Shown: positions 19,572 to 42,336, counted from the stretch's first letter. The stretch: DNA of 58,377 nucleotides from an uncultured Planctomycetales bacterium (GCA_964467905.1 CAYXSY010000010.1:2415-60791); one strand, 5' to 3'. The notes: generated by a model from the letters alone, not told the origin. Made by a program: numbers and translations.

Positions 19572-20270
19572 AGGACCGTTTCCATCTAACTACTTATAAA
19601 GTATCAACTTATGCCAGAACTGTCCCCTTGTAATAAAAAATATTGTTAGATTTCTCCTCTTTTATGCGTCTATTTATTATAGAGGTAAGATTTAAAAAGG
19701 AGGGGACTATGTCTAGACCGGGCAGGACATATTTTAATAACGCTGTTTATCATATTACCATAAGAGGCAATAATAAGCAGGCGGTTTTGAAAGAAGCGGA
19801 CGATAAAATGAATTTTATTAAATCTTTAGATAAATTTAAGAAGCGCTTTAAATTTAAGCTTTATTGTTTTGCTATTATGCACAATCACGTTCATTTAGTT
19901 ATTGAAACGCAAGAACATATTAGAATTTCTAAGATTATGCAAGCGATTGCGCTTTCTTATAGCGTAAAATTTAGAAAGAAATATGGATATGTTGGCTATG
20001 TTTGGCAAGGCAGATTTAGGAGCACGGTTATTGATGATGAGAAGTATATATTGGCTTGTATGGAGTATATTCATAATAATCCTGTGAGGGCTGGTTTTTC
20101 TAGAAGGCCTCAAGATTATACATGGAGTAGTTGTCGTTTTTATGAAGGGCTTAAATCTAGTATTGATAAGTACGTAGAAATCGATAGGTATATTGCTTAA
20201 TACTGGTTTTTATGGGGGTCAGTTCCATCGGAACTTATTATGTTGCAGAGAGATAAATAGAAACGGTCCT
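19572..20270. mobile_element. RAYT locus bracketed by nested inverted repeats
   Basis: AGGACCGTTTCCA 19572-84 vs TAGAAACGGTCCT 20258-70; GAACTGTCCCC 19617-27 vs GGGGTCAGTTC about 20216-26. Confidence 0.7.
19709..20200 (+). CDS. REP-associated tyrosine transposase (RAYT, Y1/HUH)
   Basis: AGGAGG RBS favours ATG 19709; YHITIRGNNKQ, MHNHVHLV (HUH), VWQGRF, YIHNNPVRAG and YTWSS motifs. Confidence 0.9.
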   Translation: MSRPGRTYFNNAVYHITIRGNNKQAVLKEADDKMNFIKSLDKFKKRFKFKLYCFAIMHNHVHLVIETQEHIRISKIMQAIALSYSVKFRKKYGYVGYVWQGRFRSTVIDDEKYILACMEYIHNNPVRAGFSRRPQDYTWSSCRFYEGLKSSIDKYVEIDRYIA

Positions 20271-20321
20271 ACAGGTGGGGATTTTAGCTTGAAAAGCCTT
20301 GAATCATATGTTATATTTTAC

Positions 20322-20428
20322 CTAAAGCTGCCACGGGACATATAAAAAGAGGGTTTATGTTCCAAGAAGAACATAATAATATAGTGAACTTTCTAAAGAG
20401 AACAGTTTTTCCTGTTCTCTTTTTTTGT
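20322..20428 (+). repeat. 107-bp direct repeat copy 1 (upstream region, RBS and first codons)
   Basis: 4 mismatches versus 32218-32324. Confidence 0.92.
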
Positions 20429-40300: not shown

Positions 40301-42145
40301 GACTACGGTTTAGAGACAAGCCGGACAGACGCAAGAAATTATACTACATATATAGATTATGATTTTGTTTATCAGGCATTTCCGGTAGCAATCAGGAATC
40401 CTAAGGGGCAGATTGAGAGAATGGCGTATAATGGTTCAGATAGCAGTTTTGGGCTATTTGGCCAACTACGTTCAAAAGCCGATGTTAATAGCAATGAGGT
40501 ATTATTTGAATATGACCAGTTTGGCAGAAAAACCAAGGTCATTGGTCCTCATGATGTAACCTCTACCTACGGTACAGAGTCTTATGAATATGGCATAGGA
40601 GGCCCGGGCTCAAATTATGTATTAACCCGTACAACTGAAGATAGCGGTACGGCAAACCATTTTATCCAGGTTAATATACTTGATGGATTTGAAAGAGTAA
40701 TCCAGGCAGCCAAGGAGTCGGAAGATGTACAGATATATAGCAACATAACTACAATTTATAACGAGCGTGGGGAAGTAGAGAAAATTTCATTGCCATACTT
40801 TAAGAGCGGAGGTTTGCGTACTTCTTATGTTTCCCCAGATGCTTCTGTCAAATGGGCACAGACTTTATATGATTGCATTGGGAGGATAAGTCAGGTAGTT
40901 AAGCCTGATAATACGACTATCAATAACGCTTATTATGGATGGACTACTATTATCACAGATGAAAACAGCCACCAGAAAGAGTTTGTGAGAGATGCTTATA
41001 GCAGGTTGGTAAGTGTTAAGGAGAAAAACGCAGGAGAAGAGTACGTAACGAGTTATGGATATAGCAACCTCGACGACCTCATTCTTATCATGGATCACGC
41101 GGGGAATAAAATTAGATTTGAATATGACAGTCTTAAGCGACGGGTTAAAATGGATGATCCTGGCTTGGGGGTATGGCTATATGATTATGATAATAATGGA
41201 AATCTTGTTAAAAGCACGAATGGCAATGGTAAGGTTATAAATTATGCATATGATGAGTTAAATCGCATTTTAACTAAGGATTACGTTGATAATATAAGTG
41301 TCGAAGTAGTTTATGTTTATGATGAAGCAGCTTCTACAAACGGGATAGGCAAGCGTACGAGTATGCGCGATTTATCTGGCTCTACCCGCTGGAATTACGA
41401 TAAGGAAGGCCGGATTGTGAGTCTCTCGAAAATAGTTGACGGGGTCAATTATAATGTGCAGCGGGAATATGACGCGATGAGCAGGATTAGGCGCATAGCT
41501 TTGCCTAATTCAAAAGAAGTACGTTTTAGTTATAATAACGGCGGTTTTGTAGAGAATGTTGACGGCTACGTCTCTAATGTGGATTACGACGCTTCCGGAA
41601 GGCAGGTCAGAATTGATTTTAATAATTCGGTTATTTCTTATTTTGAATACTATGACGATAATCAGAGATTGAAGAGAATTACATCCGGCGCTTTGCAGGA
41701 TTTAAATTATGAATATGATTACGTAGGCAATGTATCGAAAATAACCGATTTAGTCAGGGCGTTTACAAAAACATATAACTACGATGATTTAAACAGGCTG
41801 ACAGAGGGAGACGGTAACGTTTATGAGTATAATGCTATAGGCAATATTATTAAGTTAAACGGTCAAAATTATCTTTACCCTGATCTGCAGAGGCCGCATG
41901 CCGTCATCAACGACGGTTTAAATTCTTTTACCTATGATAACTGTGGGAATATGTTAAGCGGAGCAGGCAAAAGCATAACCTATGATTCTGAGAACCGGCC
42001 GGTATCTATAGCTAAAGATGGCAAAACCACTACTTTTGTTTATGATGGTGATGGCAAGAGGGCTAAAAAGACGGTGACCAAAGGTCTTTCGGTTACGAAT
42101 ACCATATATATTGAGGATTTATACGAAAAAGAATTCGTTCAATAA
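37307..42145 (+). CDS. Rhs/YD shell-only protein: signal peptide, SpvB-like region, 6 VCBS repeats, TcdB-mid-like region and YD repeats, with no Rhs core or cargo
   Basis: GNSWVGKGW; six D-x-N-x-D repeats; RQFRGF; YD repeats; ends at YDGDGKRAKK..IYIEDLYEKEFVQ*. Confidence 0.88.
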   Translation: MKANIKKITRLVVVMQLLLVNVACADSAGEGYVPRFSSSGPALVSLQLDASLFSGEAFTSVPITILPATANIQNKIKLALEYRSGGGNSWVGKGWELEAGYIARPNKFGANNSNNPYVLVLNGETQELVSMGSGQYRTKNETFRRIQFSGSVWQVREKDGTEYKFEISSAGRWVLTKVTDIHGVSINLSYNRSNNEQIYLSEINYPTGVGLTPYCKVKFVTEARSDLAPTYYYGSLYRINQRLKQIEISAEGHLQKKYVLNYATDGSSQVCYLNSIAEYGKNGIALPATTFSYKQPVSSSIFQSSGGWGSVTNPFSIDNGYVAAIGYIPVGLDIGIIDMNGDTLPDLIGCRLKATSPAYKYDWVVRLNNGSGFASQEYKWLDAEQSYYTFNFGSVTISQSFTLSRKTTLVDMNKDGLPDLVYSKYGGGINFASSTFGIDNIFVRYNTGSGFSGTENKLMDYTQCYYTFENYITPLIIGENMLLTDMNGDGLPDLVYNKQRGWQQCGDNKCKICDWVVRLNTGSGFSSETTWLTYDKAYFTYTIPDYPYGSDRFEPIDVLNNAMLIDINNDGLPDLVYNDFAESFKNCDYGNCAYGCSYNWKVRYNTGSAFSNTAVTLISNAPLYFYQINTVPQAKSVRIGHNGTFADVNGDGLVDFVFNKYQRDAADHPTVSWKVCLNLGNQFAGVTDLLGALGYSYNGGAVYANVSTYNSYFIDVNKDGMADFVYPKFTEQNYNNVKFGVQVYINKNTTATGLLTRQTSPYGGTTSMEYVSSANFDNTGGDGSNDLLFVMPVVSKITKNPGVGKSGSTTYNYDGGSYDIPNRQFRGFRHVKITDPLGYVNHTYFYQDNPRLGKPERQENSVVKTYNTYKQDSSAPYFTPLIQLDEYADSQCRRTAYQYDDYGNVTKTNYYGDINNTGDEKSVLTDFAINSSSWLINLPSRERVFMELDGSGALVAEAQYLYDNNSSYADIPVKGDLTKTRRYLDKQNIYLESSSAYNDYGLETSRTDARNYTTYIDYDFVYQAFPVAIRNPKGQIERMAYNGSDSSFGLFGQLRSKADVNSNEVLFEYDQFGRKTKVIGPHDVTSTYGTESYEYGIGGPGSNYVLTRTTEDSGTANHFIQVNILDGFERVIQAAKESEDVQIYSNITTIYNERGEVEKISLPYFKSGGLRTSYVSPDASVKWAQTLYDCIGRISQVVKPDNTTINNAYYGWTTIITDENSHQKEFVRDAYSRLVSVKEKNAGEEYVTSYGYSNLDDLILIMDHAGNKIRFEYDSLKRRVKMDDPGLGVWLYDYDNNGNLVKSTNGNGKVINYAYDELNRILTKDYVDNISVEVVYVYDEAASTNGIGKRTSMRDLSGSTRWNYDKEGRIVSLSKIVDGVNYNVQREYDAMSRIRRIALPNSKEVRFSYNNGGFVENVDGYVSNVDYDASGRQVRIDFNNSVISYFEYYDDNQRLKRITSGALQDLNYEYDYVGNVSKITDLVRAFTKTYNYDDLNRLTEGDGNVYEYNAIGNIIKLNGQNYLYPDLQRPHAVINDGLNSFTYDNCGNMLSGAGKSITYDSENRPVSIAKDGKTTTFVYDGDGKRAKKTVTKGLSVTNTIYIEDLYEKEFVQ

Positions 42146-42230
42146 TTATGCTTCAAGATATTTTTGGTATGAAGTCTATTTTTTGAGATTAAGTTTATCT
42201 TAGGGAACGGTTTTAAGTTAAAAAGAAATA

Positions 42231-42336
42231 GAATTTTGGGGACATAACACTTAATTACTGATAATTAAGTAATATGTCCCCGGAAGAAGAGAATAGGGGA
42301 TGGTTTTAAAAATAAATAGAACCGTCCCCATTTTTT
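42231..42336. repeat. Composite REP cluster containing both families
   Basis: GGGGACATAACACTTAATT 42238-56 / AATTAAGTAATATGTCCCC 42263-81; AAATAGAACCGTCCCCATTTTT 42315-36. Confidence 0.8.

Follow-up and report, generated by a model that had tools for sequence, protein, structure and literature searches.

How do new toxin/immunity modules enter Rhs loci and other loci for polymorphic toxins and come to be stacked there, and why are domesticated transposases of the RAYT type kept by their hosts? Both questions meet in a stretch of 58,377 nucleotides (nt), here called the window (contig C10:2415-60791), from an uncultured bacterium whose RecA finds its closest named relatives among metagenome-assembled genomes of Candidatus Omnitrophota. 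The assembly (G000) comprises 1.66 Mb in 56 contigs, with 41% GC and a completeness of 88%. Within the window, an island of Rhs genes, toxin/immunity modules and a RAYT gene is punctuated by two families of short repeats, A and B. Comparison with 41 relatives, and with a wider set of 234 genomes of the bacterial order, leads us to an answer to which we give a probability of about 0.6: Rhs toxin/immunity modules would as a rule have a RAYT unit at their 3' end, which would travel or stack along with them and leave its end-repeats behind as junction scars. In the full-text literature we found no paper linking RAYT, repetitive extragenic palindromic (REP) or TIRYT elements to the borders of Rhs or polymorphic-toxin cassettes. 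The repeated physical link between RAYT and Rhs genes described here makes both questions testable.

Repeats at the junctions of the island

Family B (TTCCGGGGACAYAAYACTTAATT) is concentrated in the island. Four matches with at most three mismatches lie there, against none in 100 shuffles, and a profile search of the whole genome returned six strong copies, four of them in the island and two forming a palindrome on contig C16. Crude open reading frame (ORF) calls delimit 533 intergenic gaps that measure 50 nt or more; B scored at nhmmer E<=10 occupies 5/8 gaps of the island and 0/525 others (Fisher P=1.6e-10); 5 to 6 of the 8 island gaps hold B, and in five of six it begins 6-31 nt past the preceding stop codon. 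The excess of repeats at the island is well supported. It agrees with an earlier reading of this DNA (the original prediction) that the second repeat family is absent from the housekeeping regions of the window, and by the genome-wide profile search the repeat density of the island is far higher than that of other intergenic DNA. The sites between modules that had been listed for this family are of unequal quality: those at 36081, 36972 and 42232 are strong, whereas those at 29348, 31465, 32159 and about 36940 (nhmmer E 3 to 86) are decayed or partial, all within the island. The idea that the repeats are self-folding REP-like units did not hold, as single B copies fold no better than shuffles and have no T-run; only inverted doublets fold (for 42226-42294, a free energy, dG, of -15.3 kcal/mol, z -7.8).

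Two joints of the island lie exactly at repeat edges. At one of them, the apex of a half-doublet (36105/36107), a single nucleotide separates the B copy at 36081-36105 from the orphan toxin cassette, as had been noted: an 83-nt block of pre-toxin linker (35274-35356) recurs at 36107-36189 with 89% identity, and the homology begins at 36107. The arrangement is that of an Rhs orphan array, with a core-bearing main gene (its core ending with ...NNPLKYVDPTGH), a 5'-truncated tip homologous to it and a small downstream ORF; we infer an immunity function for such ORFs of the island. The other joint is the foot of a doublet (32212/32213), where the second copy of a 112-nt duplication starts directly after the decayed B doublet 32159-32212. 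At both junctions the repeat or its hairpin probably acted as the joining point.

The island is bounded by DNA that is conserved in relatives. Conserved blocks stop at 19560, the stop codon of a gene for 729 amino acids (aa), and restart at recA (43860); nothing between these points is shared with the relatives compared. All island genes lie on the + strand (Table 1). Public Logan contigs with the same island proteins come from the same strain, show no variants and break at the internal repeats of the island.

Table 1. Genes, repeats and duplicated blocks of the island, in window coordinates
Feature	Position	Strand	Remarks
Conserved 729-aa gene	stop at 19560		last conserved block before the island
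Left 57-nt repeat block	19571-19627		outer arm CAGGACCGTTTC, inner arm CAGAACTGTCCCC; begins 11 nt past the 729-aa gene stop
RAYT/TIRYT-type Y1-HUH transposase, 163 aa	19709-20200	+	NF047646 and PF01797 matches; 4ER8 alignment
Right 57-nt repeat block	20215-20271		inverted copy of 19571-19627; outer arm GAAACGGTCCTA, inner arm GGGGTCAGTTCC
112-nt duplication, copy 1	20317-20428	+	leader and N-terminus; 96% identical to 32213-32324
447-aa protein	20357-21700	+	
2252-aa Rhs/TcB-TcC-like protein	21704-28462	+	TIGR03696 core match
AMMECR1 gene	28491-29333	+	Pfam/NCBIfam
Decayed B single copy	29348-29372	+	15 nt past AMMECR1 stop; nhmmer E=3.1
Probable family-A single arm	29418-29435	+	AAAATAGGGACGGTCCC; just past extended -10 promoter-like box
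275-aa protein	29467-30294	+	
TonB_C protein	30331-31452	+	Pfam/NCBIfam
Decayed B doublet, right arm truncated	31465-31507	+	13 nt past TonB_C stop; E=86; inverted-repeat pair
MazE-like pair	31608-32146	+	
Decayed B doublet	32159-32212	+	13 nt past 92-aa gene stop; 3' edge directly adjoins the second 112-nt copy
112-nt duplication, copy 2	32213-32324	+	leader and start of the 1161-aa Rhs-core protein; 96% identity
1161-aa protein	32253-35738	+	Ig-like repeats and Rhs core; TIGR03696 core match
Pre-toxin linker inside 1161-aa gene	35274-35356	+	recurs at start of orphan cassette
104-aa ORF, putative immunity gene	35735-36049	+	
B single copy	36081-36105	+	strong; 31 nt past 104-aa ORF stop; ends 1 nt before orphan cassette
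Orphan cassette	36107-36933	+	toxin tip and 125-aa putative immunity gene
Orphan TNT-like toxin tip	36107-36559	+	TNT domain
125-aa ORF, putative immunity gene	36556-36933	+	
B tandem	36940-36996	+	partial B (36940-36952) and full strong B (36972-36996); starts 6 nt past 125-aa ORF stop
83-aa ORF	37059-37310	+	
1612-aa Rhs protein	37307-42145	+	
Family-A single arm	42203-42214	+	GGGAACGGTTTT
Full B inverted doublet	42232-42256 / 42263-42287	+ / -	86 nt past 1612-aa Rhs gene stop; hairpin
Family-A inverted doublet	42296-42329	+	followed by T-run, terminator-like; fold z -2.8
recA	43860		conserved blocks resume here

Beyond the last Rhs gene, the 83-aa ORF has a 75-aa paralogue (36% identical) at 42401-42628, just past the repeat cluster 42203-42329. 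The module that begins with this paralogue and has no Rhs gene may be a remnant module.

RAYT genes, their end-repeats and Rhs loci across the order

Is the neighbourhood of RAYT and Rhs genes peculiar to this island? Counted within 8 kb of an Rhs-core locus, a RAYT gene or relic occurs at 16/58 loci of the order against about 0.8 expected, and no RAYT occurs at control loci (252 kb around recA and another conserved gene), so that the proposed enrichment at Rhs loci across genomes was upheld. Among the 41 relatives, 7/18 Rhs-core loci have a RAYT, where the RAYT densities of those genomes predict about 0.55. In an independent set, the 201 kb of DNA downstream of 40 Rhs loci in other genomes of the order yielded nine RAYT genes or relics versus 0.26 expected (Poisson P=1e-11); ten more loci of this set carry A or B repeats without a RAYT, and a RAYT or repeat is present at 19/40. 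The linkage of RAYT to Rhs loci in the order is well supported. The usual order is Rhs C-terminus (Rhs-CT), immunity gene and RAYT, mostly co-oriented and about 60-200 nt apart, with Rhs, immunity and RAYT in this sequence at loci L100, L101, L103, L104 and L105. The Rhs-adjacent RAYTs belong to several clades, and most are intact.

At some loci, fragments of a RAYT unit mark the module border. In G018, two 69-nt relics that are 99% identical lie behind the Rhs immunity gene, each made of B, the promoter region and the first 10 nt of the RAYT gene. The relic in G030 is 92 nt long and 97% identical to the intact copy; it comprises B, the promoter and 60 nt of the RAYT gene. In both genomes, these relic left ends of RAYT units stand between the immunity gene of the main module and the orphan module. 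At an orphan Rhs fragment of G169, the homology border follows 7 nt after the end of a family-A doublet (dG -30.6 kcal/mol).

The identification of both motif families as RAYT/TIRYT end-repeats is well supported. The 23-nt B motif is found in 18/41 relatives and 77/234 genomes of the order, at 1-81 copies per genome and in about equal numbers forward and reverse, while a reversed control pattern gave 0 matches in the 234 genomes. Inverted B copies flank RAYT genes in G009, G030 and G124 and in the high-copy genomes G217 and G218; RAYTs 59-100% identical to the G124 protein are encoded in G217, G218, G182, G075, G213, G124 and G125. The B copy number appears to track the presence of this B-type RAYT, amounting to 26-81 in the relatives that have one. 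No B-type RAYT was found in the source assembly or in the high-copy but incomplete assemblies G220, G199 and G175, and the window holds no relic of one that we could find, its similarity being confined to the 24-nt core.

The RAYT of the window is cognate to family A and not to family B, the one present at most junctions. Family A (GGGGACGGTTCT) forms low-copy hairpin doublets dispersed across the genome, six of them clean where shuffled genomes have none, and the dispersed copies differ from the flank arms of the window RAYT by 1 nt. A-like arms also flank RAYTs in G005, G008, G018, G031, G036 and G078. The family-A motifs that had been noticed near 29418 and 42315 correspond to the probable single arm at 29418-29435, whose first 14 nt agree with a copy on contig C1, and to the clean doublet at 42296-42329. 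Both families have 6-10 copies in the source genome. In two other genera, family-A repeats also precede recA, at a distance of about 140 nt (L057, G023:C38, 2828-2863; L046, G011:C2, 10220-10231); the variable region of the source genome ends at recA.

The window RAYT gene is real and, judged from its sequence, looks intact. Its product scores 92.1 bits against NF047646 (REP_Tyr_transpos; cut-off 80) and just 31.5 bits against the IS200 model (cut-off 55); its HUH motif (HNHVH) aligns to PEHMH of E. coli TnpA-REP (4ER8), and its YIHNNPV, with the catalytic tyrosine, to YIYINPV. That the gene is bracketed by two nested inverted repeats was confirmed: the block 19571-19627 is mirrored at 20215-20271, with two nested arms on each side. 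These flank blocks fold no better than shuffled sequence, and the RAYT of G036 (L064) has the same block at its flank. Upstream of several RAYT genes there is a conserved motif in which TTGTTAGATTT is followed after 13-15 nt by CGTCTATT (window 19650-19690, C21:13900-13950, L013:10480-10530 and L138:1790-1830). The motif recurs in part (TGTTAGATTT) at position 29404 of the window, where it overlaps a promoter-like match (TTGATA, 17 nt, TAGATT); this overlap points to an extended -10 promoter (TGnTAGATT type).

Genomes of the order have 1-13 RAYTs, and almost every RAYT examined has its own inverted flanks. The source genome has three, each with a distinct flank repeat. The two genes outside the window lie at C17:35273-35737 and C21:14003-14425; the repeat of one of them (CCTGCCGGCAGGCAGG / GTAGGGGAGGTTTAAAC), with about 26 copies, is the most abundant in the genome, and that of the other is AGTACCAGGTACGTACCTGGTACT.

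Family B also occurs inside giant ORFs. On contig C16 of the source genome (24252-24317, L005), a near-perfect 66-nt inverted doublet (dG -21 kcal/mol, z -6.9) stands in frame within an ORF of 11,021 aa, with a translation that includes VSGTQHLIHGQSPEVIKYCVPGI; it recalls the in-frame palindromic elements of Rickettsia, and an empty-site comparison with relatives met no alignable homologue of the protein segment. We considered B as a coding remnant and rejected it: the C16 copy is in frame, yet the island copies carry stops in that frame, which makes a RAYT flank the better explanation. In G070 (C10:126000-154000; L089, L090), giant ORFs (1106, 2277 and 3283 aa) contain seven copies of a composite of about 110 nt (B and a repeat of the GGAAACTGTTTCC / AATCGGGACAG type), all read in the same frame and encoding NSGDTI(F/L)NS..GASSAVLK.PSFPNN.ETVS.SIGTVGK. 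In the giant genes of Omnitrophota, transposon end-repeats may link one module to the next in frame.

Small gene cassettes are another setting. In G152 (L093, C33:3000-16000), a co-oriented array of AAA_14/DUF4143, CopG, Gp49 with HTH, RhuM-Fic, and HEPN with nucleotidyltransferase has an integron-like look, every cassette being followed by a B copy inside a longer conserved repeat; no integrase was seen in this stretch. Further genes set apart by B are SIR2 (G023) and PLD (G034). A homologue of the MazE-like pair of the island (49-64% amino-acid identity) at 7100-7950 of L030 (G020:C7) is flanked on both sides by another perfect palindrome, GGATTCCCGC(N4)GCGGGAATGAC. A similar small cassette is there bracketed by another repeat family, and B as the neighbour of this homologous toxin-antitoxin pair is ruled out in G020.

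How modules may come to carry end-repeats

How would such repeats come to stand between modules? According to our preferred reading, modules that arrive from other genomes, or pile up through C-terminal displacement, would carry the adjacent RAYT end-repeat and sometimes the first bases of the RAYT gene with them, so that each module would keep a repeat as a scar at its 3' border. The decay of most B copies in the island would be due to the lack of a B-type RAYT that could maintain them. In some cases the joining point would be the repeat or hairpin itself, and the joining could proceed by ordinary hairpin-provoked or short-homology recombination or by RAYT cleavage. Several observations weigh against this account. 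No cassette gain or loss at a repeat was seen, the public same-strain contigs being invariant. Orphan borders in relatives are mixed, with 2 of about 8 abutting a strong palindrome and the others without a repeat, and the junction offset varies from the repeat edge (window) to 10 or 60 nt into the RAYT gene (G018 and G030). The pristine C16 doublet points to recent B mobility in the lineage and fits poorly with an import of B through cassettes only; with 88% completeness, the assembly could lack a B-type RAYT that the genome has. Most contigs of G217 and G218 have B copies, which thereby extend beyond toxin loci. B is also found inside giant ORFs of relatives and between their toxin-antitoxin and defence genes, so the tie may be to accessory or tolerant DNA generally and not to Rhs. 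Finally, the gene models behind the statistics are crude ORF calls.

The enzyme might instead play an active part, cutting single-stranded DNA at the repeat, excising or capturing toxin tip, immunity gene and repeat as circles, and inserting them beside another repeat; this would amount to an integron-like cassette system driven by an HUH enzyme. Although E. coli TnpA-REP has in vitro activity both in cutting REP DNA and in rejoining it (PMC6006769), the strong linkage involves several RAYT clades and most Rhs-adjacent RAYTs are intact, we regard such a mechanism as unlikely. The island does separate its modules by co-oriented B copies, two modules have their 5' border exactly at a repeat 3' edge, as cutting at the repeat end predicts, and an 83-nt duplication flanks the newest module, as single-crossover integration of a circle would give; against this stand the absence of the cognate B-type RAYT from the assembly, single copies that form no hairpin, the decay of several of them, offsets that are inconstant across genomes, and public same-strain contigs among which no circular or rearranged form occurs. 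The original prediction that RAYT/REP activity may assemble or shuffle cassettes survives in part: both families are RAYT-linked and two homology borders lie at repeat edges, whereas the missing B-type RAYT, the decayed copies, the varying offsets and the dispersal of B in relatives do not favour it. It is rather improbable, in turn, that the dispensable DNA behind Rhs genes is merely a safe haven in which mobile elements and their end-repeats survive, with no causal tie to joining. Such a haven would suit compact genomes with about 6% intergenic DNA, the other insertion sequences at these loci (IS3-like genes at L102, a putative IS110-like transposase ORF at L101), and the occurrence of B and other repeats in toxin-antitoxin/defence arrays and giant ORFs, and the dispersal of B in B-rich genomes fits a broad distribution over accessory DNA. 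It does not lead one to expect repeat edges within 0-8 nt of homology borders in three independent cases, RAYTs directly behind the immunity gene and mostly co-oriented with it at many loci and in many clades, or B in most island gaps without a B-type RAYT for local seeding. That B is a conserved regulatory or RNA element (terminator, insulator or operator) selected after each module, and not a transposon end, seems very improbable to us: its position shortly past stop codons, co-oriented with the genes, its 23-nt sequence conserved across genera, and the resemblance of the A doublet 42296-42329 to an intrinsic terminator are outweighed by single copies without fold or T-run, by decay, by a copy number of 1 to 81 that apparently tracks the B-type RAYT, and by inverted B repeats around RAYT genes. 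A known RNA family was rejected as well, Rfam giving 0 matches in the window at gathering thresholds.

What would follow for the two questions posed at the outset? A bolder proposal, which we hold to be doubtful, is that RAYT/TIRYT genes and end-repeats of Omnitrophota constitute a single-stranded DNA cassette system for polymorphic-toxin loci, with RAYT as the recombinase of an HUH-based analogue of integrons. Units made up of a homology handle, toxin tip, immunity gene and end-repeat would form circles after a cut at the repeat, and would then be inserted beside another repeat or by a single crossover. If this were true, RAYTs would have a host-level function as cassette recombinases. Even with a passive link, the end-repeats are of practical use as markers: in streamlined bacteria that are uncultured, they can show where a toxin cassette begins and ends and help to follow its horizontal origin.

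Relation to known repeat, integron and toxin systems

The elements described here agree with the TIRtron/TIRYT type (Di Nocera et al. 2013, PMC3733652), in which a single Y1-HUH gene is likewise bordered by non-palindromic terminal inverted repeats. Their non-self-complementary repeats share GGGGWSAS and occur as singles, dimers and clusters (PMC3733652, PMC6006769). The consensus is matched by B (GGGGACAC) and by the inner arm of the window RAYT (GGGGACAG), and dispersed family A (GGGGACGG) has one mismatch to it; here, too, repeats are found elsewhere as singles, inverted dimers and clusters, and there are several different units per genome. The differences are an Omnitrophota host, two nested arms per side, and the placement behind Rhs toxin/immunity modules, which is not part of the published description. 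By its repeat features, the window RAYT can be likened to TnpA-Y1 subclass 2.1 (Quentin et al. 2018, PMC6006769) and RAYT group 1 (Bertels et al. 2017); it is short (163 aa), and subclass 2.1 proteins have a C-terminal helix-turn-helix extension.

With REPtrons, or REP-RAYT systems, and REPINs (Nunvar 2010; Bertels and Rainey 2011, PMC3116915; Ton-Hoang 2012; 4ER8), the island shares a domesticated IS200-like transposase with cognate short repeats, a repeat copy number that also appears to depend on the cognate transposase, and inverted doublets (42232-42287 and 42296-42329) that form hairpins as REPINs do. A classical REP unit measures 20-40 bp, is self-complementary and carries a GTAG or CGTC tag; genomes have tens to hundreds of copies but usually a single RAYT. 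Here, single units are unfolded and without either tag (they read (T)TCCGGGGACA... and GGGGACGGTTCT), copies are few in each family, and genomes have 1-13 RAYTs.

Integron attC arrays are similar in that co-oriented cassettes are each followed by an imperfect palindromic repeat, that toxin-antitoxin cassettes are common in them (compare the array in G152), and that the site would act as folded single-stranded DNA. They differ in their enzyme, as the one linked here is an HUH transposase and not a tyrosine recombinase, and no excision was seen. A reading of the repeats as attC sites was rejected: a search of the island found no IntI among its ORFs, and B has no R''/R' core sites (RYYYAAC...GTTRRRY).

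The closest parallel on the toxin side is provided by orphan rhs-CT/rhsI and cdiA-CT/cdiI arrays (Poole et al. 2011, PMC3150448; Koskiniemi et al. 2014, PMC3967940), where, as here, an Rhs-core gene is followed by its immunity gene and then by a 5'-truncated toxin tip with homology to the main gene and an immunity gene of its own. Transposable-element genes are a frequent sight in such arrays, and Poole et al. (PMC3150448) remarked only on their occurrence there. The island departs from these arrays in that the homology kept is only 83 nt of post-core linker, in that this homology starts exactly at a RAYT end-repeat, and in that the accompanying element is consistently a RAYT across many genomes.

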